This document shows positions 3,072 to 20,742 of a stretch of DNA of 48,374 nucleotides, one piece after another; the stretch's first letter is position 1; every line of letters begins with the position of its first letter. A program made the position numbers and the translations under genes. Origin of the DNA: an uncultured Candidatus Saccharibacteria bacterium (lineage in GTDB: Bacteria; Patescibacteriota; Minisyncoccia; Portnoybacterales; UBA2143); NCBI GenBank assembly GCA_964439515.1, contig CAYTNU010000002.1, forward strand, positions 9,877-58,250, written 5' to 3'. Under the pieces are notes generated by a model that saw nothing but the letters and a program-made list of their open reading frames with translations, had not been told where the DNA came from and did no database searches.

Positions 3072-3332
3072 TTATATCTTACTGATTGCTTTGGTTAATC
3101 GTGATTTTTTTCTGCTTCCTGTGTTTTTTTTAATCACGCCTCTTTTAATCGCTTTATCAATCGCCTTATATGTTTTTGGTAGAATTTCAAGAGCTTCTTC
3201 TTTTTTGGCGCTTTTAATTAATTTTTTACTTTGTTTGACTAGCTCTTTCATCGTTTTTATGCGACGTGAATTAAATAACCGTTTTTTGTGGTTTTGACGA
3301 AGAGCTTTTTTTGCTGATTTAGTTATAGGCAT
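3072..3332 (-). CDS. rpsT: 30S ribosomal protein S20
   Basis: MPITKSAKKALRQNHKKRLFN.. is a typical S20 N-terminus. I prefer the internal ATG at 3332, giving the usual ~86 aa. The track start at 3389 would add 19 atypical residues. Confidence 0.85.
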   Translation of the reverse strand: MPITKSAKKALRQNHKKRLFNSRRIKTMKELVKQSKKLIKSAKKEEALEILPKTYKAIDKAIKRGVIKKNTGSRKKSRLTKAISKI

Positions 3333-3396
3333 AAGTTTAGTATTATCTAAATTTGATAAGTTGTCAAATAATTTACCCTGAGTTATCATATAAAGT

Positions 3397-3963: not shown

Positions 3964-4000
3964 TTTTAGTTTATGTTTTATAGGTTCACATTTAAATTTC

Positions 4001-4099
4001 ATGCTTCAGAAAACAATTTTTTTTAAATCGCTTAGCCCTTTTCAGCAAGCTGAAAAGCACGCCCACACCTACGATTCAAAAAAATTATTTTCTTCGCAT
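4001..4099. repeat. nested imperfect palindrome in the ruvA/FemAB-like spacer
   Basis: The outer arms are ATGCTTCAGAAAACAATTTTTTTTAAATCG (4001-4030) and CGATTCAAAAAAATTATTTTCTTCGCAT (4072-4099). The inner hairpin is CTTTTCAGC-AA-GCTGAAAAG (4038-4057). Confidence 0.6.
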
Positions 4100-4104
4100 T
4101 ATTT

Positions 4105-5037
4105 ATGAATACAAAGAAAGAACAATGGAATCAGTTCATTAAAGAAAACAAAGGTTCTTTTCCACAGTCTTGGCAATGGGGCCAACTACAAGAATCAATG
4201 GATAGAAAAATTTGGCGGATTGAGACAGAAGGATTAAAAGGATTAATTATTAAACATAATTTGCCATTAAAGAAGAATTATCTATATTGTCCCTATGGGC
4301 CAGTTGGAAAAGGAGATTTTAAAGAATTTTTAGAAGAGATTAATAAAATAGCTAAGCAAGAAAAAAGTATATTTTTTAAGATAGAACCGAATTTTACAAA
4401 TTACAAATTACAAATTACAAATTACAAATTTATTAAATCTGCTAAAGAAATTCAGCCAAGCAGGTCTATCGTTTTAGACATTAACCAATCAGAAGAAGAC
4501 TTGCTTAAGCAAATGCATCAAAAGACAAGGTATAATATTAAATTAGCTCAAAAAAAAGGAATAGAAATTAGACAATCAAACAATCCAGAAGCATTAAATG
4601 CTTTTGTTGGCCTATTGGGACAAACGGCTAAGCGAGATGATTTTTATCTTCATCCTAAAGAATATTATCAAAAAGTTTTAGATATTTTAGGAAAAGAAAC
4701 AGTTAAATTATTTTTAGCTGAATATCAAAACAAGACAGTGGCAGCTATCCTTGTGTATTTTTTTGGGGAAACAGCTGTTTATGCTCATGGCGCTTCTGAT
4801 CATGATCATCGTAGATTAATGGCTCCTTATTTACTTCAATGGCACGCAATATTAGAAGCAAAAAAGAAAGGATTAAAATATTATGATTTTTGGGGAATTG
4901 ATGAAGATAAGTGGCCTGGAGTAACTCGTTTTAAAAAAGGATTCAATGGCCAAGAAGTAAATTATTCAGGTGCTTTTAACTTGATTTATAGGTCAACTTG
5001 GCATACTCTTTATAATCTAGCTAGAAAAATTTTATGA
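4105..5037 (+). CDS. FemAB-family peptidoglycan interpeptide-bridge aminoacyltransferase (FemX/MurM-like)
   Basis: Motifs SWQWGQ, LYCPYGP, TRYNIKLAQKKG, AVYAHGASDHDHRRLMAPYLLQW and TRFKKGF are characteristic of the FemAB family. Confidence 0.8.
   Translation: MNTKKEQWNQFIKENKGSFPQSWQWGQLQESMDRKIWRIETEGLKGLIIKHNLPLKKNYLYCPYGPVGKGDFKEFLEEINKIAKQEKSIFFKIEPNFTNYKLQITNYKFIKSAKEIQPSRSIVLDINQSEEDLLKQMHQKTRYNIKLAQKKGIEIRQSNNPEALNAFVGLLGQTAKRDDFYLHPKEYYQKVLDILGKETVKLFLAEYQNKTVAAILVYFFGETAVYAHGASDHDHRRLMAPYLLQWHAILEAKKKGLKYYDFWGIDEDKWPGVTRFKKGFNGQEVNYSGAFNLIYRSTWHTLYNLARKIL
4394..4428 (+). repeat. tandem heptanucleotide repeat (TTACAAA x5) inside the FemAB-like CDS
   Basis: Counted directly: five perfect TTACAAA units, encoding ..NFTNYKLQITNYKF.. 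Confidence 0.95.
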
Positions 5038-6355: not shown

Positions 6356-7657
6356 ATGATATTACTAGAGAAAATATTTTTTTATCTTTTAGTTTTTTGT
6401 TTGCCTTTTCAAACAAGGAAGATAATTTATCAATTTGGGGAAGATTTCAATGAATGGACTAGTATTTATCTTTACTTGACTGATGTTTTGCTTATTTTAG
6501 TCTTTTTGTTTTGGATTTGGAGGATAAGAAAAAACAGATTTTTAAAAGATTTTAAAATATTTCAATTAAAAAACTATAGTTTTTGGCTATTGGTTTTTTT
6601 TATAATTGGTTTTATTTCTTTGATCCAAGCTAGGAGCTTGTCTCTTGGTTTTTATTCTTGGTTAAAATTATTAGAATTTATAGGATTATTCTTTTATCTA
6701 AAATGTAATTATAGGGAAATTTTTAATTTTAAAAGATTAGCTCAAGTTTTTGTTGCTAGCGGTTTAATCCAATCTATAATAGCTATTTTACAATTCTTTA
6801 CTCAGAAGAGCTTAGGGTTAAGATTTTTAACTGAAAGTCCATTAGGTGTGAACATAGATGGAGTAGCTAAATTTACTGTCGATGGATCAACCTTTATTCG
6901 GGCTTATGGAAGCTTGCCTCATCCTAATGTTTTGGCTTTTTTTCTTTTAATTAGTATTTTCTTTCTTTATTTTCTTTGGTTAGAAAAGAAACATTCTCTT
7001 AATATTAATTTATTATTAATTGCTATTTATTCATTATTAATTACTGCTTTATTTTTAACTTTTTCTAGAATTATTATTGTTCTTTTTGTTTTATCAAGTT
7101 TATTTTATTTTATATTTGAGTTTTGTAAGTCAAGAAAAAAAGAAAATAAAGAATTGTCTAAGAAAATTATTTTGCTTTTTTTATTATTTATTGTTTCCTG
7201 TTTATCGTTTGTTGTTTTTGCTTTTCCTGAACTTTTCTCTAGGTTCTCAGTATCTTCAGCAGAACAATCAGTTACTTTGAGGGTTCTTTATAATGAAACT
7301 GCTTATTCTGTTATCCAAGAATATCCCTTAATTGGTATTGGGCTTGGTAATTTTGTATGGGAGATAAGAGAAATGTTACCATTGTTGTCAAATTGGATTC
7401 ATCAACCAGTTCATAATGTTTATCTTTTAATATCTAGTGAAGTCGGCTTATTAGGATTAATTGTTTTTTTAATATTTCTTTATCAATTACTAAAGAGATT
7501 TAAAAAACAAAATTCTGTTTTATTTATTATCGTCATCTGTATTATATTTGTTAGTTTATTTGATCACTTTTTCTGGACTCTACAGCAAGGTCAGCTAATG
7601 TTTTGGTTAATTCTGGGGTTAATGACGCATTTGACCGTTAGGGAGATGGGAGTATAA
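6356..7657 (+). CDS. O-antigen ligase/Wzy-like polytopic membrane protein
   Basis: About 10-12 hydrophobic helices with a central loop (RAYGSLPHPNVLA..) typical of the Wzy_C/O-antigen ligase family. Confidence 0.65.
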   Translation: MILLEKIFFYLLVFCLPFQTRKIIYQFGEDFNEWTSIYLYLTDVLLILVFLFWIWRIRKNRFLKDFKIFQLKNYSFWLLVFFIIGFISLIQARSLSLGFYSWLKLLEFIGLFFYLKCNYREIFNFKRLAQVFVASGLIQSIIAILQFFTQKSLGLRFLTESPLGVNIDGVAKFTVDGSTFIRAYGSLPHPNVLAFFLLISIFFLYFLWLEKKHSLNINLLLIAIYSLLITALFLTFSRIIIVLFVLSSLFYFIFEFCKSRKKENKELSKKIILLFLLFIVSCLSFVVFAFPELFSRFSVSSAEQSVTLRVLYNETAYSVIQEYPLIGIGLGNFVWEIREMLPLLSNWIHQPVHNVYLLISSEVGLLGLIVFLIFLYQLLKRFKKQNSVLFIIVICIIFVSLFDHFFWTLQQGQLMFWLILGLMTHLTVREMGV

Positions 7658-8989: not shown

Positions 8990-9006
8990 AAAATAGATTT
9001 TAGAAA

Positions 9007-9219
9007 ATGAAATTTATTATATTATTTTTAATTAAAATTTATCAGAAAACTATTTCGCCTGACCATGGCTATATTCCTATCTTAAAGTTATTAGGACAAT
9101 GTAGACATTATCCAACTTGTTCTCAATATACTTATGATGCCGTTGAAAGACATGGAGTAGTTAAAGGAGTTTGGATGGGAATTAAAAGAGTTTCTACTTG
9201 TCATCCTTGGGGATCTTGA
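9007..9219 (+). CDS. yidD: membrane protein insertion efficiency factor YidD
   Basis: The motif CRHYPTCSQYTYDAVERHGVVKGVWMGIKRVSTCHPWG is canonical for YidD. Confidence 0.85.
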   Translation: MKFIILFLIKIYQKTISPDHGYIPILKLLGQCRHYPTCSQYTYDAVERHGVVKGVWMGIKRVSTCHPWGS

Positions 9220-9291
9220 CTTGTTCTAAAAAATATGTTATTTAAAATATAAAGATAAGAAGTTCATTAATAATGAAAAAGGAGGTTAATT

Positions 9292-9699
9292 ATGAGAAAA
9301 AAGTTAATATTGATAGTTGACGACGAAGAAAGCAATCGGGACATATTAATGAATTTGATCAAATTTCATTTAGAGACCCATATTATTTTAGAGGATCAAA
9401 TGCCTGAAATTATAGAGGCAACAAATGGGTTGGAGGCATGACATTTACTTTCTAAAGAGAAGATAAAACCTTTTCTTATTTTCACTGATTTCCAAATGCC
9501 TAAAATGAATGGGCTGGAACTCATAGATAGAATAGATGCTGAACTGAACCTCAAGGCAAAGATTGTAGTTTGTAGTGGACTCCATTCAATAGGGGCTGAG
9601 GTTAAAAAAAGAGGGAGGAATTTTCTCTCAAAACCTTTTCAAAAAAATGATCTTTTTGAGATTATTGAAAAAGGAATTCTCATGTCCTGTTTGGAATAA
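9292..9699 (+). pseudogene. stand-alone response-regulator receiver domain interrupted by an in-frame TGA (9439-9441)
   Basis: ATG 9292 follows a strong SD (AAAGGAGGT). The translation is MRKKLILIVDDEESNRDIL...ATNGLEA*HLLSKEKIKPFLIFTDFQMPKMNGLELI...SKPF. This is a complete CheY-like fold (DD, phospho-acceptor D, K-P) only if the TGA is read through. Confidence 0.7.
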
Positions 9700-9771
9700 G
9701 AAACAGGAATAAGGGCAATCTAGTAATAGGTCACCCTTTTTTTATTCTTCTAATATTGATATGATAAAAAG

Positions 9772-10398
9772 ATGAAGATAAAGATAAATAAAGTAATTAA
9801 AATTTTAATTTTTTCTGATGTCGCCTTAGTTGGTGGGTTCGGTTTTATTACTCCTATCTTCGCTATTTTTTTAACAGAGAGGATTAGAGGAGGTAATGTA
9901 GAAATTGCTGGTTATGTTGCTGCTATTTATTGGATTGTTATGTCTTTAATGGTTATTCCTTTTGGAAAATATCTGGATAAAAATCATGGAGAAAAAGATG
10001 ATTTTTGGTTTATTGTTATTGGTAACATCTTAGCTTCCTTAGCTGTAATTGGATTTATTTTTTCTTTTTTACCTTGGCATATATATATTTTTCAAGTTTT
10101 TTATGCCTTTGGTATGAGTATGAACATAGCTGCTTACTCAGCTATATTTACTAGACATATTAGTAAGGGGAGAGAAGCATTCAGTTGGAGTATTAGGGCT
10201 TGTTTGATTGGTTTTTCTGCCGGAATTACAGGTGCTATTGGAGGAATAATCGCTAATCGTTTTGGTTTTACTATGCTTTTAATTTGTGTATTGTTTTTTG
10301 TTTTGATTAGTTCTTTAGTACCATTTTTTATTTATAAAAGTATTTTTTCGAAGAATAAAAAAGATTTAAGGATACCAAAAATTAAAGAAATCAAATAA
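9772..10398 (+). CDS. polytopic membrane protein (MFS-like six-helix half)
   Basis: About six hydrophobic helices. No other motif recognised. Confidence 0.5.
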   Translation: MKIKINKVIKILIFSDVALVGGFGFITPIFAIFLTERIRGGNVEIAGYVAAIYWIVMSLMVIPFGKYLDKNHGEKDDFWFIVIGNILASLAVIGFIFSFLPWHIYIFQVFYAFGMSMNIAAYSAIFTRHISKGREAFSWSIRACLIGFSAGITGAIGGIIANRFGFTMLLICVLFFVLISSLVPFFIYKSIFSKNKKDLRIPKIKEIK

Positions 10399-12117: not shown

Positions 12118-12483
12118 ATGTCTTTAAAGGTTAAAAATTGGGTTTTAGTTTTTATTTGGGCTAGTTTTATCTTTTTTCTTTCTCATCAACCCTTTCTTAA
12201 ATCTGGTCTTCCTAGTCAATGGGATTTTATTTTACGAAAAATAGCTCATATTAGCGAATATGCTATTCTAACATGGCTTTTAATAAGAGCCTTAAAAGAA
12301 TATGGATTAACTAATAGGAAAATTTTGATTTTAGCTATTAGTCTATCTTTTTTGTATGCTTTTTCCGATGAATATCATCAAACTTTTATTTTTGGACGTC
12401 AAGGAGCATTTAGAGATGTTTTTATAGATAGTGTGGGGATTTTAATTACTAGCCAACTAGCTAGAAATAAGAAAATACCATAG
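12118..12483 (+). CDS. VanZ-family membrane protein
   Basis: Four helices. KIAHISEYAIL and SDEYHQ motifs typical of VanZ. Confidence 0.7.
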   Translation: MSLKVKNWVLVFIWASFIFFLSHQPFLKSGLPSQWDFILRKIAHISEYAILTWLLIRALKEYGLTNRKILILAISLSFLYAFSDEYHQTFIFGRQGAFRDVFIDSVGILITSQLARNKKIP

Positions 12484-12498
12484 AATAAGGATAGTCAA

Positions 12499-13170
12499 AT
12501 GAGTAATCATTTAATAATTAAAATATCTAAAATTTTTCAAGCATTTACTTATTGGCCTATTTATTTAACGTTAAGATTTTTTGTTCGTTTTGAAATTTAT
12601 GGACAAGAAAATTTAAAAGGACTTGAAAATGGACCAATTATTTTTGCTTCAAATCATTCTAATTATTTAGACAGTCCAATTAATGCGGCAATAATGCCTC
12701 GTTATAAAGGGGAGTTTTATCCAAAAAGATTTTTTCCTATTAGATTTTTAGCTCATTCTAAATTTTTTAAATTTAGATATTTATTAGTTGCTTTATACGT
12801 TTGGATAAATGCTTCTATAAAGATACAAGCAAATACTGGAAAAGATTTGTCCATAACGCTTAGAGAAGCGATTGATGCTTTAAAAAATAATAATCATATT
12901 TGGATTTATCCAGAAGGTAGAATATCACAGAATGTTCGATTTAAAGAAGGCAAGCGTGGTATTGCTTATTTACATCAACAAACTGGCGCGCTAATTGTTC
13001 CAGTATTTATCAGGGGAACATTTGGAATCTTGTCTTTTAAAACTTTATTGCGTAGAAAAAAAGTAATAGCCATGATTGGAGCTCCCATTTATTCTTTAGA
13101 GAATTTTTCATTAGAACAGGCAACAGAAAAAATTATGTTATCAATTGTAGAATTATCTAAAAAACATTAA
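12499..13170 (+). CDS. plsC: lysophospholipid (1-acyl-glycerol-3-phosphate) acyltransferase-like
   Basis: HX4D motif (NHSNYLD) and a YPEGRIS block. Confidence 0.75.
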   Translation: MSNHLIIKISKIFQAFTYWPIYLTLRFFVRFEIYGQENLKGLENGPIIFASNHSNYLDSPINAAIMPRYKGEFYPKRFFPIRFLAHSKFFKFRYLLVALYVWINASIKIQANTGKDLSITLREAIDALKNNNHIWIYPEGRISQNVRFKEGKRGIAYLHQQTGALIVPVFIRGTFGILSFKTLLRRKKVIAMIGAPIYSLENFSLEQATEKIMLSIVELSKKH

Positions 13171-13174
13171 TAAT

Positions 13175-13669
13175 ATGAGTAAACATTTAATATCTAAAAT
13201 TGGAGTAGGAGCGTTGATTATTGATAAAGAAAATAATTCTATTTTATTGAGCAAAAAGAATTATGGACCAATAAAAGACAAATGGACTTTTCCTGAAGGA
13301 TATGTTGATAAATATGAATCTTTAATTGAAGCAATAAAGAGAGAAATGAAAGAAGAATTAAATGGAGATATAGAAGTAAATGATTTGGTCGCTGTTCGTT
13401 ATAGGAGATCAAAAAAGAATCCAACGGTTTATTTTGTTTTTAATTGTTTATTATTAAATAAAGAAGAATTAAAAATAAACGATAAAGAGGAAATAAATGA
13501 TTTTAAGTTTTTTAATATTGAACAAGCTGAAGAAAGTCCAGAAATTTATTCTTTGGTTAAGATAATTTTAAATAAATATAAAAATAATTCAAACTCTAAT
13601 TTTAAAAAAGCTGATTTTTTTCCTTCGGAGATGAAAGTAAGTAAAAACGATTATTTCTTATATTTATAA
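13175..13669 (+). CDS. NUDIX hydrolase
   Basis: Nudix box: PEGYVDKYESLIEAIKREMKEELNG. Confidence 0.8.
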   Translation: MSKHLISKIGVGALIIDKENNSILLSKKNYGPIKDKWTFPEGYVDKYESLIEAIKREMKEELNGDIEVNDLVAVRYRRSKKNPTVYFVFNCLLLNKEELKINDKEEINDFKFFNIEQAEESPEIYSLVKIILNKYKNNSNSNFKKADFFPSEMKVSKNDYFLYL

Positions 13670-13673
13670 TAAT

Positions 13674-14438
13674 ATGGAATCTTTCTTAAAAGAAACTAAA
13701 TATTGTGATTTTAATAATTTAAAAATTAAAGAATTAGCTTTTGATATAACTAAAAATATAAACGATGATAAAAACAAAGCAATCGCTTTATTCTATTATG
13801 TAAGAGATAGCATATTATATAGAGTTGGAAATTGGAACAAAAAAGCATCGGAAACATTATTAGAGGGGAAGGGAGTATGTACTAGTAAATCAAATCTTTT
13901 AATCGCCTTATTGAGATCGTTGGGGATACCAGCTGGATATGGCGTAATGCGTGTAAAGGGAAAAGAGTATTTTGGAAACATAGTCCCATTATTTTTTAGA
14001 GACAAGATAGGGAAAGAATCTATTCATATTTATGTTTATGTGTATCTAAATAACAGATGGATAAAATGTGATCCATCTGATGATAAAAGATTTTCAGAAA
14101 ATACTAGCTATTTTAATCCACAAAGCAAATTAGTAGATTGGAATGGCGAAAATGATGCAATCTTAAATTTAAATCCAAATCATATTTTAGAAGATAGCAA
14201 TGTCTTAGATAATATAGATGATATTATTTGTAAAGAGCCTAAAAATGCAAAAGGGATTATTTTGAATTTAGGAAATCTTTATATAGATTTTTTAAGATGG
14301 AATGATAAAAGAATTAATAATTTAGATGAGCTGGATTTTTTGTTTAAAAAGTGGTTAAAGAAAAATCATATATTATATTATTATTTTTACATTATAGGAG
14401 TTTGGTTTAGAGATAAAAGAAGTAATAAATTATGTTAG
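13674..14438 (+). CDS. transglutaminase-like cysteine peptidase superfamily protein
   Basis: GKGVCTSKSNLLIALLRSLGIPA (catalytic Cys), ..HIYVYVY.. (His) and ..KCDPSD (Asp) give the order expected for a transglutaminase core. Confidence 0.7.
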   Translation: MESFLKETKYCDFNNLKIKELAFDITKNINDDKNKAIALFYYVRDSILYRVGNWNKKASETLLEGKGVCTSKSNLLIALLRSLGIPAGYGVMRVKGKEYFGNIVPLFFRDKIGKESIHIYVYVYLNNRWIKCDPSDDKRFSENTSYFNPQSKLVDWNGENDAILNLNPNHILEDSNVLDNIDDIICKEPKNAKGIILNLGNLYIDFLRWNDKRINNLDELDFLFKKWLKKNHILYYYFYIIGVWFRDKRSNKLC

Positions 14439-16081
14439 ATATTTATACATGGTCTGTTCTTATAGTGGCTGTATTTTTTACTGTTTTTGGATCTTTTTCT
14501 TATCTTAGGAATAGGAAAGAATTGATGAACAAGCTTTTTGCGTTGCTCTCTTTGGCATTTGCAATGTGGAGTTATACTTGGTTCGCTTTGCTTCTTACTA
14601 GAGAAAATGAGCAAATCGCTTTCTTATGGGCAAGATTATTAAATATTGGAGCAATATTTATTCCTATATTTTATTTTCACTGGGTTTTATCTCTTTTAGA
14701 TTTACATAAAAAGAAAAAGATTTTAGTAATATCTGGTTATCTTGTTACATTATTATTTTTTGTTCTTAGTTTTTCTGATAAATATGTAACGGGTGTTCAT
14801 TCTATACTTTCTTTTCCTTTTTGGCCTACTGCAGGGCCTTTGTATAAATGGTTTTTAATATTTGGATACTTATGTATGGTTGGTTATTCTTTATATTTAC
14901 TATTTAAAGCATTTAATAAAAGCGAAGGAGAAAAAAAATATCAAATTGGATATGTTATTATTGGTTCTTTGATGGGATTCGGTGGAGGAGCAATGAATTT
15001 TCCTTTGATGTATAACATAGATATAATTCCTCCATTTGGTGTTTTTGCTATTATCGCTTGTCCATTAATTCTTAGTTATGCAGTAATTAAATATCATTTA
15101 ATGAACACAAAAGTTGCTACGGTTGAAATTCTTAGCGCTTTAATATCTGCCGTTTTGCTTGTTGATGCTCTATTGTCTTCGGGTACAGAATTTTATTTAA
15201 AATTCGGTCTTTTTATTGGAGTTGTTATATTCAGTATAATTTTAATCCATAGTGTTTTAAAAGAAACTAGGTCTAGAGAGAAAATTATTAAATTAGCAAA
15301 GAGTTTGAAAAAGGCTAATATTGAATTACAAAAATTAGACAAAGCAAAATCAGAATTCATTTCTATTGCTTCTCACCAATTAAGAACTCCAGTATCAGTA
15401 ATAAAAGGGATTACCTCTATGATGATTGAAGGAGATTTAGAAAAATTTCCTATAGAAAAAAAGAATAGGTTTATTGAGGGGCTGTGGAATAAAAGTTGTA
15501 AATTAGAAAATATTATTAATGACATTCTTAATGCTACAGAAATGACGAATTTTAAATATAGAGTTAAAAAAGAAAAAGCTGAATTAATTGATTTAGAAGA
15601 ATTGATTAAAAAAACAATTAGTGATTTTCAATCAATTATAAAGAAAAAAGGTGTGGATGTTATTTTAAAAAAATCTATAAAATCTTTACCGAGGATAAAT
15701 GGACAAAAACAATATCTTCAAGAAGCATTTAGTAATTTAATAGATAATGCTATTAAATATACTTCCTCTAAAGGAAAGATTGTTATATCCATTACAAAAA
15801 AAGAAAATAATGTTATCATATCTATAGAGGATAATGGCATTGGAATTCCTAAAGAAGAAATTCCTGGATTGTTTATAAAGTTCATAAGAGGTAGTAATGC
15901 GAGGGAAATGTACACAGATGGTTCTGGACTAGGACTTTTTATAGTTAGAGAAGTTATTGAAGGACATTATGGTAAAGTATGGATGGAAAGCGAACTTAAT
16001 AAGGGAACAACTTTTTTTATCAGTCTGCCAATTCATTCTTCTAAAAAAATTAATGTTAAAAATCATATTATAAATGACTAA
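14432..16081 (+). CDS. sensor histidine kinase with multi-helix membrane sensor domain
   Basis: About seven N-terminal TM helices, an H-box (SIASHQLRTP), an N-box (LIDNAIKYT), and G-boxes (DNGIGIP, GSGLGL). Confidence 0.9.
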   Translation: MLDIYTWSVLIVAVFFTVFGSFSYLRNRKELMNKLFALLSLAFAMWSYTWFALLLTRENEQIAFLWARLLNIGAIFIPIFYFHWVLSLLDLHKKKKILVISGYLVTLLFFVLSFSDKYVTGVHSILSFPFWPTAGPLYKWFLIFGYLCMVGYSLYLLFKAFNKSEGEKKYQIGYVIIGSLMGFGGGAMNFPLMYNIDIIPPFGVFAIIACPLILSYAVIKYHLMNTKVATVEILSALISAVLLVDALLSSGTEFYLKFGLFIGVVIFSIILIHSVLKETRSREKIIKLAKSLKKANIELQKLDKAKSEFISIASHQLRTPVSVIKGITSMMIEGDLEKFPIEKKNRFIEGLWNKSCKLENIINDILNATEMTNFKYRVKKEKAELIDLEELIKKTISDFQSIIKKKGVDVILKKSIKSLPRINGQKQYLQEAFSNLIDNAIKYTSSKGKIVISITKKENNVIISIEDNGIGIPKEEIPGLFIKFIRGSNAREMYTDGSGLGLFIVREVIEGHYGKVWMESELNKGTTFFISLPIHSSKKINVKNHIIND

Positions 16082-16457
16082 TAATATAAAAATATTACTC
16101 GTTGAAGACGATCCTGATCAAATTCTTATTTATCAAAGTAAATTTGAATTAGAAGGTTTCTTTTTGATAGTGGCTGATAATTATAAAGATGCGATAAAAT
16201 TTGCTTTATATGATAAACCAGATTTGATTATGTTGGATTTACTTTTAGGAAATGAAAACGGTCTTGATGTTTTAGATGAACTTAAAAAAAATTCTAAGAC
16301 CAGTAAAATTCCAGTAGTTGTTTTTACTAATTTTGATACAGAAGAAACTAAAGATAAGGCATTCAAATTAGGAGCAATTGATTATATTGTAAAGGCTCAA
16401 GTTACTCCAAGTGAAATTGTTAAAAAAGTAAGAATGATAATAGAGAAATTTAAATAA
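16074..16457 (+). CDS. single-domain response regulator (receiver only)
   Basis: ILLVEDDPDQ, DLIMLDLLL, and a VFTNF..K pattern. Overlaps the kinase gene by 8 nt. Confidence 0.9.
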   Translation: MTNNIKILLVEDDPDQILIYQSKFELEGFFLIVADNYKDAIKFALYDKPDLIMLDLLLGNENGLDVLDELKKNSKTSKIPVVVFTNFDTEETKDKAFKLGAIDYIVKAQVTPSEIVKKVRMIIEKFK

Positions 16458-16552
16458 CATGTTTCATTTTCCACAAAAAACATCTTTTGGATTAGATCTA
16501 AGTGATCTTTCTTTTAAAATTGTACAATTTAAAAAAAAGAAAGATGGTTTAT
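16446..16552 (+). repeat. left copy of an exact 107-bp direct repeat (RR stop plus first 31 codons of pilM)
   Basis: Base-for-base identical to 18596-18702 by manual alignment, at an offset of 2150 bp. Confidence 0.9.
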
Positions 16553-16602
16553 ATGTCCGTGGATGTATGCAGTGGGTTGACAATACACTGTTTTCTTGTT
16601 AG
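16459..16602 (+). pseudogene. pilM 5' remnant (31 pilM codons fused to 16 unrelated codons, then TAG)
   Basis: MFHFPQKTSFGLDLSDLSFKIVQFKKKKDGL is identical to the intact PilM N-terminus at 18609. It then diverges (YVRGCMQWVDNTLFSC*). Confidence 0.8.
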
Positions 16603-16605
16603 AAT
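16577..16605 (+). promoter_or_regulatory. consensus sigma70-like promoter (TTGACA-17 nt-TGtTAGAAT)
   Basis: TTGACA at 16577-16582, a 17-nt spacer ending in an extended -10 TG, then TAGAAT at 16600-16605. It sits 75 nt upstream of the ATP-grasp ATG. Confidence 0.6.
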
Positions 16606-16679
16606 TTAAGCAGAACATTAAAATTCAAAAGAACAGAAACATAAAAATAATCATCTATGGTTAAGGGAGGTGTGTTGAA

Positions 16680-17648
16680 ATGATATTAATTTTGACGAAT
16701 AAAATGGATGCTCATACGGATATAGTCATTGAAAAATTACACAAACGCGGGCTGGATTTTTTCAGGTGGAATATAGAGGATTTTTTGACTGAACATGGTT
16801 TTGAAATAGAAATTGAAAACGGTTGTGTAAAAAATCTAATGTTATCGGCAGAAGACAGAAATATAGATTTAGTAAAAGATGTTTCTGTGGTATGGTATAG
16901 AAGACCCGGAAAATTAGTTATTTCAGAAGCAGTTAAAGATGAAGGGTATATAGAATTCGGGTTAAGAGAAGCAAAATTTCTGTTAAATAATGTTTGGAGA
17001 TTGTTAGAAGATAAAACTTGGATAAATAATCCTTTTGAAAACAGTCAGATTGACAACAAACTTTATCAACTTAGTTTGGCTGCGAAATTAGGATTGGAAA
17101 CTCCTCATAGTTTTGTGACTAACAAGAAAAAAGAGGCCTATAATTTTATAGAGAAATATGGTGATGTGGTTGTGAAAGCAATATCGGTAGGACATGTCAA
17201 TCAAGAAAGAGGATTTAAAAACATATATACTCATAAAATTGAGGCAGATGACTTGAGTAAATTGGATTCCGTTGAGTTAGCGCCGACACTATTTCAACTA
17301 AATGTCCCAAAACAAATTGAGTTAAGAATTACGGTTATAGAAGATAGTGTTTTTTCATGTGCTATTGAATCTCAAAAATCAGAAAAAAGCAAACAAGACT
17401 GGAGGAGATATGACTTTGAAAATGTTCCTCATTATCCCTATGAAGTGCCAGAAGAAATTGAGCAAAAATTGATTGAATTTCTTCGCGTTTCGGGTTTAAA
17501 ATATGGAGCATTTGATATGGTGCTAACACCTGATGATAGATATGTTTTTCTTGAATTAAATCCCAATGGGCAGTGGTATTGGATAGAACATTTAACAGGT
17601 TTAAAGATTACAGATAAGTTGATTGATTTATTCGCAAAATACTTATAA
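16680..17648 (+). CDS. RiPP ATP-grasp macrocyclase, MdnC/MvdD (microviridin/graspetide) type
   Basis: 322 aa with SD GGGAGGTG at 16665-16672. Blocks VSVVWYRR, LYQLSLAAKLGLETP, IELRITVIEDSVF, KQDWRRY and LKYGAFDMVLTPDDRYVFLELNPNGQWYWIE parallel MdnC/MvdD blocks as I recall them. Confidence 0.85.
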   Translation: MILILTNKMDAHTDIVIEKLHKRGLDFFRWNIEDFLTEHGFEIEIENGCVKNLMLSAEDRNIDLVKDVSVVWYRRPGKLVISEAVKDEGYIEFGLREAKFLLNNVWRLLEDKTWINNPFENSQIDNKLYQLSLAAKLGLETPHSFVTNKKKEAYNFIEKYGDVVVKAISVGHVNQERGFKNIYTHKIEADDLSKLDSVELAPTLFQLNVPKQIELRITVIEDSVFSCAIESQKSEKSKQDWRRYDFENVPHYPYEVPEEIEQKLIEFLRVSGLKYGAFDMVLTPDDRYVFLELNPNGQWYWIEHLTGLKITDKLIDLFAKYL

Positions 17649-17664
17649 AAAGGAGGTGAGGCAA

Positions 17665-17844
17665 ATGAATCAAATTCCTTTTGCGGCGCAGTTTGCGGAA
17701 GACGTTCCAGAAATAAACATGAGTGGTATATATGATCCTAAACTACAAATGTTTTTACCGGAAAGTAAATCTTTTGAAGCGGGGCATACTACGACAGAAA
17801 CGGCAACTGGTGGTTGGAATGATACCGATAGTGATGTCGATTAG
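17665..17844 (+). CDS. graspetide precursor peptide (59 aa; core ..HTTTETATGGWNDTDSDVD)
   Basis: ATG 17665 lies 5 nt after the SD AAGGAGGTGA (17650-17659) and 16 nt after the ATP-grasp stop. The leader has IPFAAQFAED (compare microviridin PFFARFL). The C-terminus is Thr-rich followed by Asp-rich. A terminator follows directly. Confidence 0.75.
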   Translation: MNQIPFAAQFAEDVPEINMSGIYDPKLQMFLPESKSFEAGHTTTETATGGWNDTDSDVD

Positions 17845-17869
17845 CTTGTTCTTTCGCATAACTGTAAAT

Positions 17870-17905
17870 ATTAGCCGCAATAAAAAAATTGCGGCTAATT
17901 TTTTA
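17870..17905 (+). terminator. rho-independent terminator after the precursor gene
   Basis: A perfect 12-bp stem, ATTAGCCGCAAT-AAAAAA-ATTGCGGCTAAT, followed by TTTTT. Confidence 0.85.
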
Positions 17906-17914
17906 ATAAATAAA

Positions 17915-18517
17915 ATGAAAAACAATAATCGTGTTAAAATTAATAATCTTTTAAATGAGCGTCGATATGGCGATGCTTTGTTGCTGTTGGAAAAAGGCAT
18001 CAAAGGGGAAAAGGATAACGATGAGTTATGTAGAAAATATGTTTTGTTAGGATGGCTTTATGATCAATGGGCTTTGAACGTTGAAAAACGAATAACCAAG
18101 AAATATCAAAAATTGGCGGAGAAATATTTTAATTTGGCTCTTGGATATAAAAAAACAAAATATGACGCTACGAGAGGATTGGCTACGGTTCTAATGCATC
18201 AGGAAAAATATGATTTGGCAATGATTTATTACAAAAAAGCCCATAGATTAAAGAAATCTTTTGATACTTACAATGATTTGGGAAATATTTATCAAAAGAT
18301 AAATAAACGCAAAACGGCAATTACTAATTACGAAAAGGCCTTTTGTTTGAGAAAGAACAAAGAGGAAGCGACTATCCCTTGTTTTAATATGATTGTGATT
18401 AGCAAGAAAGCGGGAGACAACGCGACGGAAAAGAAGTATACGGACATTTTAAAAAAACTTGCCAAAAAGTTTGGTTTGGCGAAAATGATGTTTGAAAGAT
18501 TAGATAAAGTGAAATAA
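17915..18517 (+). CDS. TPR-repeat protein (200 aa)
   Basis: Repeated TPR-like helices (YDLAMIYYKKAHRL, YNDLGNIYQKINKRKTAITNYEKAF, AEKYFNLALGY). The start is set at ATG 17915, because the track's longer ORF (17723) overlaps the precursor gene and the terminator. Confidence 0.65.
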   Translation: MKNNNRVKINNLLNERRYGDALLLLEKGIKGEKDNDELCRKYVLLGWLYDQWALNVEKRITKKYQKLAEKYFNLALGYKKTKYDATRGLATVLMHQEKYDLAMIYYKKAHRLKKSFDTYNDLGNIYQKINKRKTAITNYEKAFCLRKNKEEATIPCFNMIVISKKAGDNATEKKYTDILKKLAKKFGLAKMMFERLDKVK

Positions 18518-18570
18518 CATAAAGGACATAAAGGGGTCAGGATCCTTTTTATTAGGGATTTTTTAAGCAC

Positions 18571-18599
18571 TTGGCTTAATAAGAAAAAAATGATAAAAT
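18571..18599 (+). promoter_or_regulatory. possible promoter at the right island junction (TTGGCT-17 nt-TGaTAAAAT)
   Basis: TTGGCT at 18571-18576, a 17-nt spacer ending in TGA, then TAAAAT at 18594-18599. It lies just upstream of pilM and straddles the start of the right repeat copy. Confidence 0.3.
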
Positions 18600-18702
18600 T
18601 TAAATAACATGTTTCATTTTCCACAAAAAACATCTTTTGGATTAGATCTAAGTGATCTTTCTTTTAAAATTGTACAATTTAAAAAAAAGAAAGATGGTTT
18701 AT
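18596..18702 (+). repeat. right copy of the exact 107-bp direct repeat
   Basis: Identical to 16446-16552. Contains the start of the intact pilM. Confidence 0.9.
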
Positions 18703-19655
18703 GTCTGTCTAGTTTTATTAAACAAGATATTCCTAAAGGATTAGTTGAAGAAGGAGAGATAAAAAAAGAAAAAGAATTAATTGATATTTTAAAAAAAACT
18801 TTGATTAAAATGAAGGTAGGGAAGAGAGTGGTTTGTAATCTGCCAGAAGAAAAAGTTTTTATTCGAATTATTCAATTGCCGAAAATGAAAGAAAGCGAAT
18901 TAGAAAAAGCAATTAATTGGGAGGCTGAAGCCAATATTCCATTAGTTATTGATGAAGCATATTTAGGATGGCAAGTTATTGATCCAATTTTTGAACATAT
19001 TGATCATCTTGATATTTTGATCGCAGCTGCTCCTCGAACATTAGTAGATAATTATTTAAGTTTTTTAAGGAAAAGCGGACTTGAACCAATAGCATTAGAA
19101 CCAGAATCAGCTTCTATAATTAGAAGTATAATGACTAAAGATGATTTAACGCCAAGTATTATTGTTGACCTAGGGGCAGTGGGATCAAATTTTGTTATAT
19201 TTTCTGCTTTAGCAATACGCTTTACTTCTCATATAAAGATTTCTGGTCAACTTTTTAATAAAGCAATAATGAAAGAATTAAAAGTAAGTGAAAAAGAAGC
19301 TGATAAATTAAAAATTAATGTTGGATTAGATAAGAAAAAAGAAAAAGGAATGGTTTATAATGCATTAGAACCAATTATTGATGATTTAGCTAAGCAGATT
19401 AATGATTATATTGTCTTTTATCATGAACACGCTACTCATGTTCATGGTCCAGATGGAGCGATAGGACAGATAATTCTTTGTGGAGGTGATTCTTTATTAT
19501 TAAATCTACCTGAATTATTAAGTGAAAAATTAAAGTTACCAGTTAAAATGGGCAATTCTTTAATTAATGTTTCATCAAAAGGTATATCTCTTCCTAAGAA
19601 AGAATCTTTTACATACGCCACTGCAATAGGACTAGCCTTAAAAGAATTCTTATAA
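18609..19655 (+). CDS. pilM: type IV pilus assembly ATPase-fold protein PilM
   Basis: Actin/FtsA-like fold pattern (GLDLS.., ..DLGAVGSNF.., ..ILCGGDS..). It sits upstream of PilN/PilO-like genes. Confidence 0.85.
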   Translation: MFHFPQKTSFGLDLSDLSFKIVQFKKKKDGLCLSSFIKQDIPKGLVEEGEIKKEKELIDILKKTLIKMKVGKRVVCNLPEEKVFIRIIQLPKMKESELEKAINWEAEANIPLVIDEAYLGWQVIDPIFEHIDHLDILIAAAPRTLVDNYLSFLRKSGLEPIALEPESASIIRSIMTKDDLTPSIIVDLGAVGSNFVIFSALAIRFTSHIKISGQLFNKAIMKELKVSEKEADKLKINVGLDKKKEKGMVYNALEPIIDDLAKQINDYIVFYHEHATHVHGPDGAIGQIILCGGDSLLLNLPELLSEKLKLPVKMGNSLINVSSKGISLPKKESFTYATAIGLALKEFL

Positions 19656-19657
19656 TA

Positions 19658-20197
19658 ATGTTTAAACTTAATCTTTTACCACCAAAAGATAAAAAAAGAT
19701 TAGAATTAATTGATTTTAGCTATCTATTAGTTTATTTTGGTTTTCGATTAGTAATTGTTTTTATTATTTTTATTTTAATTTTAATTACTACTTATTTCTC
19801 TCTTTTTATTCTTGTTAATTCACAGGAAGGATTGATAGGGGTTAGACAAAGCAATGAAAATGCTCAATTACAAATGGAAATTGAAAAGAAAATAGAAGAA
19901 ACGAATAAAGATGCTAGACAATTATATGTTAAACAGAGTGAGATAATTGTTTGGACTCCTATTTTGGAAAAACTAAGTAAAATTACTCCTGATGGAATTT
20001 ATTTAACTAGTTTTTCTTATCTCTCAATTGACGATAAAGTTAATATAGTTGGATGGGCTGAAAATAGAGATAAGCTGTTATCTTTTAAAGATTCTTTAGA
20101 AGAAATCCCTTATTTTAAAGATGTATATGCGCCTTTAAGTAATTTAATTAAACAAACTGATATTAATTTTAATTTTACTCTTAAATCAATAGAATGA
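19658..20197 (+). CDS. pilN: type IV pilus assembly protein PilN-like
   Basis: N-terminal LNLLPPKDKKR motif, then one TM helix and a coiled coil. Confidence 0.75.
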   Translation: MFKLNLLPPKDKKRLELIDFSYLLVYFGFRLVIVFIIFILILITTYFSLFILVNSQEGLIGVRQSNENAQLQMEIEKKIEETNKDARQLYVKQSEIIVWTPILEKLSKITPDGIYLTSFSYLSIDDKVNIVGWAENRDKLLSFKDSLEEIPYFKDVYAPLSNLIKQTDINFNFTLKSIE

Positions 20198-20742
20198 ATT
20201 TTATTCAAAAAAAACTTATTGGTTCTATTATAATTGTTGTAATTGTCTTAGCTCTTATTATCTGGTTGGCTGTTTTACCATTAGTAGGAAAAATTAAATA
20301 TTTATCTCAAGAGTATTTATCTAATCAAGGAATTCTAGCTCAAATAGATCAAAAGGAATTTTTATTTAAAGATTTAGAAAAAGATTATCAAGAAATAGAA
20401 GATGAATTATTAATCATTAAAGGAGTTTTTCTTGAAAAAGAAAAAATAGTTAGTTTTATTCCTGATTTAGAATCTATTGCTAAATTTACTGGAAACATTT
20501 TTGAAATTACAACCGTTATGTCTTCTTCTGATGAAGAAGAAAATAGAGAAAAATTCCTTAGTCTAAATATTTCTCTTCGTGGTGATTTTAAAAATTTACT
20601 TCTTTTTCTATCTAATTTAGAAGATAGTCCCTATCCTCCTTATCGTTTATTGGAAATAGATAAATTATCAATTAATAGATTAGATGACGAAGAGGATTAT
20701 AGATTAGAAACTAATTTAAGAATTAAAGTTTATACAAAATGA
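20194..20742 (+). CDS. PilO-like pilus assembly protein
   Basis: N-terminal TM helix, coiled coil and C-terminal ferredoxin-like region. Its ATGA overlaps pilN. Assignment is by position and topology only. Confidence 0.55.
   Translation: MNFIQKKLIGSIIIVVIVLALIIWLAVLPLVGKIKYLSQEYLSNQGILAQIDQKEFLFKDLEKDYQEIEDELLIIKGVFLEKEKIVSFIPDLESIAKFTGNIFEITTVMSSSDEEENREKFLSLNISLRGDFKNLLLFLSNLEDSPYPPYRLLEIDKLSINRLDDEEDYRLETNLRIKVYTK

Follow-up and report, generated by a model that had tools for sequence, protein, structure and literature searches.

A graspetide cassette between two exact copies of the pilM 5' end in a Patescibacteria genome, and its probable acquisition by homology-anchored recombination between co-occurring lineages

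Bacteria of the candidate phyla radiation (CPR), or Patescibacteria, have tiny genomes with few recognisable mobile elements; hence, the gain and shuffling of their accessory genes are hard to explain. Here, we analyze 48,374 nucleotides of one such genome (GenBank assembly GCA_964439515.1, contig CAYTNU010000002.1, positions 9,877 to 58,250; the whole stretch is called the window below), in which a cassette for a graspetide, a peptide with side-chain macrocycles, lies between a response regulator (RR) gene and the pilus gene pilM. Two identical 107-bp copies of a gene junction bracket the insert, and the right copy is preceded by the tail of a VanZ gene. With moderate confidence, we favour an origin by homology-anchored recombination among Patescibacteria lineages that co-occur, with the stretch between VanZ and pilM as a hot spot for flexible genes, that is, a known kind of gene cluster inserted by a known kind of recombination, and not a new kind of mobile element. 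The locus is a clean population-level example, in which one lineage has the cassette fixed, the sister lineage lacks it, and the recombination scars are still legible. Three more insertions that we found bear scars of this kind.

A closely related known process is insertion-duplication of the Campbell type. In Escherichia coli, single-crossover integration of a circular molecule gives rise to anchor duplications of 109 to 950 bp (PMC3240628). The present locus is similar in the direct duplication of the target, in a duplication as long as the shared homology, and in needing no element-encoded enzyme, but neither a circular form nor a plasmid backbone or replicon can be seen, and the right copy brings a VanZ tail foreign to the chromosome type on the left, so that a circle would have to derive from another haplotype. 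The second comparison is with displacement arrays (type VI secretion system [T6SS] effector-immunity, Rhs, and contact-dependent inhibition [CDI] orphan modules), for which displacement by an anchor plus an illegitimate join has been proposed in the T6SS and Rhs cases (PMC5361080). In those arrays, as here, a conserved gene end is the anchor, the incoming modules carry a copy of it, and the exchange takes place between related co-occurring strains (PMC5361080); a further shared trait is that modules already present, older or adjacent, persist with truncated anchor remnants ahead of them (here, a pilM fragment, the VanZ tail, and the histidine kinase [HK] 3' ends of two comparison loci, L028 and L122). 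The differences are that here a housekeeping pilus gene provides the anchor, with its 5' end, and that the cargo is a cluster for a ribosomally synthesized and posttranslationally modified peptide (RiPP), not a toxin-immunity pair. Classical homology-facilitated illegitimate recombination (HFIR) also usually deletes recipient DNA, whereas here there is a duplication. Regarding the cargo, CPR graspetides have a leader motif P-h-h-x(1,2)-h (PFFARFL-like), a core TxxxTx(6-10)Dx(1-4)D, and TPR proteins as frequent neighbours (PMC8939145). The window cluster resembles those of branches 1-2 (Makarova et al. 2022) in its MvdD-like ligase, adjacent motif-bearing precursor, and TPR partner, and differs in its precursor family (..TETxTGGWNDTDSDVD).

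The repeat and the reading frames around it are the following:

16074-16457, forward strand, receiver-only RR, stop codon TAA
16446-16552, forward strand, left repeat copy: last 12 nt of the RR (KFK and stop), a C, and pilM codons 1-31
16459-16602, forward strand, dead-end pilM fragment open reading frame (ORF) of 47 aa: 31 pilM codons fused to cargo sequence, TAG stop
18596-18702, forward strand, right repeat copy, a 100% match to the left copy, opening the intact pilM
18609-20742, forward strand, intact pilM (18609-19655), pilN (19658-20197), and a pilO-like gene (20194-20742), assigned with Pfam

The two copies are identical at 107 of 107 positions and start 2,150 nt apart (repeat family D1). 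They form the only long high-identity direct repeat in the window, and since the next best pairs extend for merely 43 to 46 nt at 70 to 81% identity, a chance origin is excluded. The duplication is made of target (host) sequence only, namely, the RR stop, a C, and the first 31 pilM codons. A first-pass annotation of this DNA had already recognised the exact repeat and the ORF layout (RR stop in the left copy, 47-codon pilM fragment, intact pilM at the right), and both hold. It had placed CA between the RR end and the ATG, where the junction actually reads AAATTTAAATAA-C-ATG, a lone C at 16458 separating the RR stop from the ATG of the fragment. Its view of unrelated DNA inserted with duplication of the gene junction also stands, with the foreign part corrected from about 2.04 kb to 16553-18552 (2,000 bp). 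A Pfam search gave no match for the fragment ORF; the downstream genes matched PilM_2 (1e-42), PilN, and, weakly, PilO.

Exact-sequence look-ups with PilM, the ATP-grasp protein of the cassette, and the RR retrieved contigs from ENA, from several JGI metagenomes, and from one NCBI record (fetched loci are given L numbers). The layout of the window is present in at least 20 independent assemblies from different samples; the order RR, pilM fragment, ATP-grasp gene, 59-aa ORF, TPR gene, and pilM recurs in every looked-up contig except L002 (k141_108032), the cargo in all RR-bearing contigs read (23/23), and both exact repeat copies in 16 of the 19 loci first fetched. Across samples the cargo is invariant save for one synonymous single-nucleotide polymorphism, and L014 differs by the loss of single bases within A8 runs, as is typical when sequencing errors occur. 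The window is presumably metagenomic, and two contigs of one sample (L002 and L010, described below) are reciprocal mosaics; both points would favour an assembly error in which the repeat was collapsed or chimeric. However, identical structure was found in the at least 20 contigs from differing samples and sources, and the ENA contigs are MEGAHIT assemblies whose names (k141) indicate k = 141, longer than the 107-bp repeat. Therefore, the assembly artefact against which the first-pass annotation had cautioned has next to no probability.

What lies upstream of each repeat copy, and how related genomes are arranged, can be described with these features:

12118-12483, forward strand, VanZ gene with an island-type C terminus (121 aa; NCBIfam vanZ_1, E = 1e-23)
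12499-16457, forward strand, accessory island found in lineages A and C only (Pfam and precomputed domains)
12499-13170, island acyltransferase
13175-13669, island NUDIX (it also matches the PADLOC candidate defence model PDC-S07, E = 2e-14)
13674-14438, island transglutaminase-like gene
14432-16081, island 7TM histidine kinase
18553-18607, forward strand, VanZ(123) 3' remnant (..GIF.SAWLNKKKMIKFK, stop), its final 12 nt being the start of the right repeat copy

and with three states of the locus:

State S0, PolX-VanZ(123)-pilM, in lineage B (L021 and L022, about 90% identical to the window) and in the outgroup L025-L027
State S1, VanZ(121)-acyltransferase-NUDIX-transglutaminase-HK-RR-pilM, with a 1-nt junction and cargo-free, in lineage C (L023, about 86%)
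State S2, S1 plus the pilM fragment, the cassette, and the VanZ remnant, in lineage A (the window)

The remnant (~55 nt) aligns with the junctions between the 123-aa VanZ and pilM of the sister lineage B (L002, L021, and L022) and of the outgroup, where VanZ abuts pilM by TA[AG], 1 to 2 nt, and ATG. In L002, PilM is identical to that of the window, ~6.1 kb are missing, and the 123-aa VanZ ends TAA-C-ATG straight on pilM. The first-pass annotation had described a degenerate echo of the regulator's 3' end here; it is the last ~55 nt of a VanZ gene, and we dropped the idea of a decayed RR tail on the evidence of L002, L021, and L025. The left copy is continuous with the RR and the right copy with the VanZ tail; thus, the structure joins two haplotypes, and the locus is a hybrid of an RR-pilM junction at the left and of a cassette plus VanZ-tail-pilM junction at the right. 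The 107 bp are the exact stretch common to both junction types, from AAATTTAAATAA-C-ATG through pilM codon 31. Duplication of the RR-pilM junction alone, from which the right copy had been derived at first, does not account for the attached VanZ tail, and two haplotypes are needed.

The VanZ of the window (121 aa) departs from the ancestral 123-aa form after GGGGATTTT (12444-12452; comparison with L002, L021, and L025), and BLAST homology to lineage B ends at 12443. The island is absent from L002, L021, L022, and L025-L027 and present without the cargo in L023. This last locus reads RR-TAA-C-ATG-pilM, the uninterrupted HK-RR-pilM arrangement with a 1-nt gap that had been anticipated from the window. 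It had also been taken for the ancestral layout (HK-RR-pilMNO); however, since the outgroup (PilM 76% identical, VanZ ending ..KKMIKLK) already has VanZ(123)-pilM, S0 is the ancestral state on this outgroup comparison.

The remnant differs from the functional VanZ tail of L002 at three positions, one of them a 1-nt deletion, and is polymorphic within lineage A (18559-18569), L007 and L017 having an extra T and TG for CA, which leaves a single difference from the functional lineage B tail. Given 1 to 3 differences in about 43 positions and the less decayed form in L007 and L017, the remnant is young. These figures bear on the alternative that the layout of the window is old, with no recent insertion, and that RR-pilM (L023) and VanZ-pilM (lineage B) are both deletion derivatives. 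Recombination between the 107-bp repeats would indeed yield the exact L023 junction, and a deletion between two GGGATTTT copies (GGGGATTTT at 12444-12452 and AGGGATTTT at 18554-18562) would regenerate the 123-aa VanZ. We nevertheless hold it to be quite improbable, because an outgroup at 76% PilM identity already carries VanZ(123)-pilM, the repeat copies match at 100% of positions, the cargo does not vary from sample to sample, and the 1 to 3 differences in about 43 positions from the functional tail of lineage B contrast with a genome-wide divergence of ~10%.

Exchange between these lineages has left other traces. L002 and L010 (k141_107045) both come from ENA assembly ERZ27316756 and were compared with window positions 2472-29655; lineages A and B co-occur in this assembly and in JGI 3300031601. 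L010 is identical to the window up to about 18606 and follows lineage B (about 90%) from there on, which makes it A-left, cargo, and B-right; L002 belongs to lineage B on its left side and changes to lineage A at the VanZ tail. Both switches fall inside 37 nt shared by the lineages beside structural heterology, the kind of place where recombination tracts are expected to end, and this shared length is far below k = 141, which speaks against a chimera. At 9000-10200, the window is 100% identical to lineage B amid surroundings of about 90%. The mosaics and this identical tract point to frequent recombination between co-occurring A and B.

On the reading that we favour, homology-anchored recombination, the donor DNA would have consisted of an HK 3'-end remnant, the cassette, a VanZ 3' tail, and the pilM 5' end, and would have come from a lineage with the ancestral VanZ-pilM layout; in the recipient chromosome, the island from acyltransferase to HK-RR would have lain immediately before pilM. 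Homology on the pilM side would have guided the exchange at one end. At the other end, either this homology would have served again, in a single crossover with a circularised fragment, or codon 31 of pilM would have been joined illegitimately. We infer in this way the identity of donor and recipient, the order of events, and the type of crossover. Since a Campbell-type single crossover and a one-sided homologous event with an illegitimate join would lead to an identical final sequence, the two are inseparable and either may have occurred; the Campbell-type integration proposed in the first-pass annotation is thus compatible with the locus without being distinguishable from the other route. The duplication leaves both the RR and pilM intact, and therefore such products survive.

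As the same annotation had noted, the insert lacks the hallmarks of a dedicated element: no recombinase, integrase, transposase, or resolvase was found among the window ORFs scanned (those outside the scan correspond to housekeeping genes annotated on near-identical contigs), and a repeat search found no terminal inverted repeats at the cargo ends. A viral vector was considered and dropped, since in the IMG/VR viral contigs the closest ATP-grasp relative reached at most 34% identity and the promoter had no match. The cargo, with a promoter of its own and a strong terminator, separates pilMNO from the two-component genes, again in agreement with the initial description. The RR would now precede a fusion ORF of 47 aa extending into the promoter of the cassette. 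Expression of the cassette would start from this promoter, with the strong terminator past the precursor gene, and pilM would keep its VanZ-pilM-type upstream context, now behind a TPR gene and not a translationally coupled upstream gene.

Several observations weigh against this reading. Among the assembled contigs, none had the predicted donor haplotype (HK-cassette-VanZ tail-pilM). The JGI contigs gave no match to a circle or tandem junction (which would read VanZ remnant, repeat, then ATGTCCGTGG), nor to a pre-insertion or precise-excision allele of lineage A (a cargo-free RR-pilM junction would read ATAATAGAGAAATTTAAATAACATG...GGTTTATGTCTGTC). Flank identities compared three ways among lineages A, B, and C gave no clear phylogenetic incongruence. 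L002 and L010 are reciprocal mosaics from one assembly and could conceivably be chimeric. The microhomology at the joints is short and AT-biased, AT(GTC) at the left and TAGGGA at the right, and is no proof of an illegitimate join. Finally, HFIR events are mostly deletions, not duplications (PMC3240628).

Parallel insertions give information on how the copies arise. L010 has a radical-SAM/SPASM gene and a 198-aa gene between the acyltransferase and NUDIX genes, bracketed by a 53-nt repeat (98%; 3986-4038 and 6493-6545, corresponding to window 13172-13224) made of the acyltransferase/NUDIX junction and the first 17 NUDIX codons, and a TTGACA..TATAAT promoter belonging to this insert stands at its start. 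In L003, a deletion derivative of the insert is present, and the window is without an insert there. In L028 and L029 (also L030), a RhuM gene lies between two 96-nt copies of a kinase 3' end (4404-4499 and 5583-5678 in L028), the right copy in L028 directly preceding a decayed graspetide cassette. The copies differ at 10 synonymous and 2 nonsynonymous sites, a mostly synonymous pattern that indicates an origin from two functional alleles and not staggered-cut fill-in. L122 (JGI 3300033145) has HK 3' fragments (985-1063 and 4716-4794) on either side of an RNHCP/radical-SAM/SPASM cluster and looks like an array built by successive displacement; a TPR homologue (80% nucleotide identity) without a ligase lies ahead of its first kinase fragment. 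In L144 (GCA_018821905.1; PilM 73% identical), restriction-modification (R-M) and SocA/Panacea toxin-antitoxin genes are found upstream of pilM, and a VanZ-tail remnant (..AWFNRGKMIK, 4950-5000) still abuts pilM, so this is a third, independent cargo at the VanZ/pilM boundary. From these comparisons, the boundary is a hot spot for differing cargos, with gene-end remnants as the usual scar. L056, L060, and L120 were rejected as parallels, their repeats being duplicated intergenic promoter/terminator modules and not gene-end duplications.

The allelic differences between the RhuM copies are relevant to another possible origin, in-situ duplication-insertion, by template switching during replication or by staggered breaks. 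From pilM codon 31, a fork or break would have moved to incoming DNA, copied the cassette there, and returned within the VanZ tail ~150 nt further upstream, which in a VanZ-pilM genome would duplicate the VanZ-tail/pilM 5' segment. At a later time, homologous recombination would have put the RR island in place of the VanZ tail on the left. Such a process agrees with the two cargo ends, which are non-homologous joints with possible microhomology of 2 to 6 nt, with the 100% identity of the copies, and with the VanZ tail on the right copy, as expected if a VanZ-pilM junction was duplicated. We regard it as rather unlikely, however, since it requires two events, its intermediate (VanZ123-pilM fragment-cargo, for which the pattern is the same as for the circle junction) had no match in JGI contigs, and the RhuM copies come from different alleles and not from one-template fill-in.

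The cargo (16553-18552) is a self-contained three-gene graspetide cassette with its own promoter, made up as follows:

16553-16573, forward strand, left-joint filler ATGTCCGTGGATGTATGCAGT, 21 nt
16577-16605, forward strand, cassette promoter TTGACA-17-TAGAAT with TG upstream, 11/12 consensus match
16680-17648, forward strand, MvdD/MdnC-type ATP-grasp peptide macrocyclase (graspetide synthetase), 322 aa (Pfam, PDB, and NCBIfam)
17665-17844, forward strand, graspetide precursor, 59 aa, with leader motif PFAAQF and core TTTETATGGWNDTDSDVD (from the translation)
17870-17899, forward strand, intrinsic terminator 3' of the precursor gene: 12-bp stem with 5 GC pairs and a T-run, kept in L028-L031
17915-18517, forward strand, TPR protein, third conserved cassette gene, 200 aa (Pfam TPR families)
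18518-18552, forward strand, trailing non-coding cargo end with a short hairpin and T-run (the hairpin was uncalled by the terminator scan)

The ligase matches Pfam PF21068 (pre-ATP-grasp domain, E = 6e-13) and RimK, the PDB entries of CdnC (5e-47), MdnB/MdnC (1e-44), and PsnB (3e-10), and NCBIfam TIGR04187 (ATP-grasp ribosomal peptide maturase, E = 3e-78, under the curated cut-off of 350 bits). The precursor ORF (MNQIPFAAQFAEDVPEINMSGIYDPKLQMFLPESKSFEAGHTTTETATGGWNDTDSDVD) starts 17 nt 3' of the ligase gene; PFAAQF agrees with the leader motif P-h-h-x(1,2)-h and the core with TxxxTx(6-10)Dx(1-4)D. Conserved homologues of this precursor, also of 59 aa, adjoin homologous ligases in L032, L035, and L036, and neither NCBIfam nor Pfam recognised the family. 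Most likely, PFAAQF is the leader that the ligase recognises, and the cross-links that it makes are between Thr and Asp/Glu side chains in TTTETATGGWNDTDSDVD; the predicted product is a peptide macrocyclised by side-chain esters or amides. The locus thus points to a previously uncharacterised graspetide precursor family for chemical study. The family of the TPR protein comprises only 16 proteins, the members of which adjoin a ligase and a precursor. When the ligase and the TPR protein were compared with PADLOC for an anti-phage role, no meaningful match was obtained.

The cassette promoter is conserved in L028-L031 (GGGTTGACAATAC..TTGTTAGAAAT). The strong terminator given at 17870 by the first-pass annotation is there, a 12-bp stem followed by a T-run, while its promoter-like element at 18571-18599 is merely a 9/12 consensus match, far poorer than the 11/12 site at 16577-16605, in a region with no excess of promoter-like sites (16 found versus 14.6 +/- 4.2 expected from shuffled sequence). 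Nucleotide homology to the L028 cassette begins at 16574. Ahead of the promoter, L028 has ..CCAGTGGAGTAG, where the HK gene stops. The 21-nt filler of the window, which has no other match in the window or in any fetched locus, loosely resembles this end of a histidine kinase gene; it was probably left over from the 3' end of an HK gene that preceded the cassette at its previous location. The right joint lies within TTTTTAT/TAGGGA (18544-18558; the sequence that spans it is GGATCCTTTTTATTAGGGATTTTTTAAG).

The same triad of ligase, precursor, and TPR genes was found in other Patescibacteria (L032-L037) at unrelated sites, with ligases 61 to 63% identical and near-identical precursor cores. Its closest copy (85% aa identity) is the decayed cassette of a Portnoybacteria metagenome-assembled genome (L028, GCA_022013995.1), which follows a 7TM-GAF histidine kinase. 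The contexts of the others are:

L032 and L033, after a tRNA and a dehydrogenase gene
L035, after ftsX and a tRNA
L036, after a tRNA and before a RimK-like gene

As the triad is conserved at unrelated sites, the cargo is a conserved, transferable cassette, and its flanks are unrelated among L028, L032, L035, and L036. Some of these copies are accompanied by a repeat element of up to ~135 nt, which parts the cassette from neighbouring single genes near tRNA genes in L032 (5704-5825, 7878-7940, and 11760-11828) and L036 (about 142-209, 2256-2390, 3265-3392, and 4048-4119); in L035 and L036, the cassette is directly downstream of the tRNA gene. The arms of the element are inverted (GTTCTAACGT(TG)TCCAC and GTGGACGTTAGAAC) and flank a terminator hairpin. 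Half-elements at the array ends suggest a site-specific cassette recombination with attC-like or tandem att sites. An Rfam scan of the element in L032, L035, and L036 returned tRNAs only, and its fold is weakly better than that of shuffled sequence (z = -2.2).

These arrays are among the arguments that the window insert could be a non-autonomous element integrated site specifically, the 107-bp repeats being attL and attR and a tyrosine or serine recombinase acting in trans. The direct repeats around the insert and the regeneration of an intact target gene are as in islands at gene ends, and the ~135-nt repeat of L032 and L036 near tRNA genes has inverted GTTCTAAC..GTTAGAAC arms that resemble attC. 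We consider this very unlikely for the window, which is without a recombinase and in which the repeat is purely host sequence (RR tail plus pilM). The cassette flanks differ among L028, L032, and L035, other such insertions use other local gene ends with no common motif, and the attC-like arms have no match in the window even when three mismatches are allowed; the right joint shares merely a coincidental 13 nt (TTTTTATTAGGGA) with the element. Hence, compared with genomic islands and integrative elements with att repeats, the locus is similar in its direct repeats at both ends and in the target gene regenerated at one of them, and different in having no integrase, a host-only repeat, and no common att core among independent insertions of the cassette. 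With integron cassettes and clusters of attC sites lacking integrases (CALINs), it shares a small, promoter-proximal, single-function cargo, as well as the L032/L036 array with its imperfect-palindrome repeats; the window, however, has no attC-like element or IntI. Integron insertion does not produce a 107-bp target duplication. From transposons and insertion sequences it differs in having neither inverted repeats nor a transposase, and in a duplication of 107 bp versus the 2 to 15 bp of a target-site duplication.

The evidence from the window and from the parallel insertions supports the view that homologous and illegitimate recombination among co-occurring strains, not dedicated elements, drives flexible gene content in these bacteria. 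A wider proposal, that Patescibacteria in general acquire promoter-bearing cassettes without a recombinase through 50- to 150-nt copies of conserved gene ends, goes much further, and we think it unlikely. If true, gene-end copies would be portable homology arms that travel with RiPP clusters, RhuM, and R-M systems; DNA taken up by the competence pilus would be knocked in beside a conserved gene that stays intact, the gene-end duplication being the signature; and docking would recur at two sites, the VanZ/pilM boundary and the 3' end of a 7TM histidine kinase.

The interval between yidD and a major facilitator superfamily (MFS) gene (about 9000-9770 of the window) is another variable spot. In contigs near-identical to the window (L006 and L014), it contains a 49-aa ORF and a 67-aa response regulator fragment, and in L003 it has an intact 123-aa response regulator and no MFS gene.

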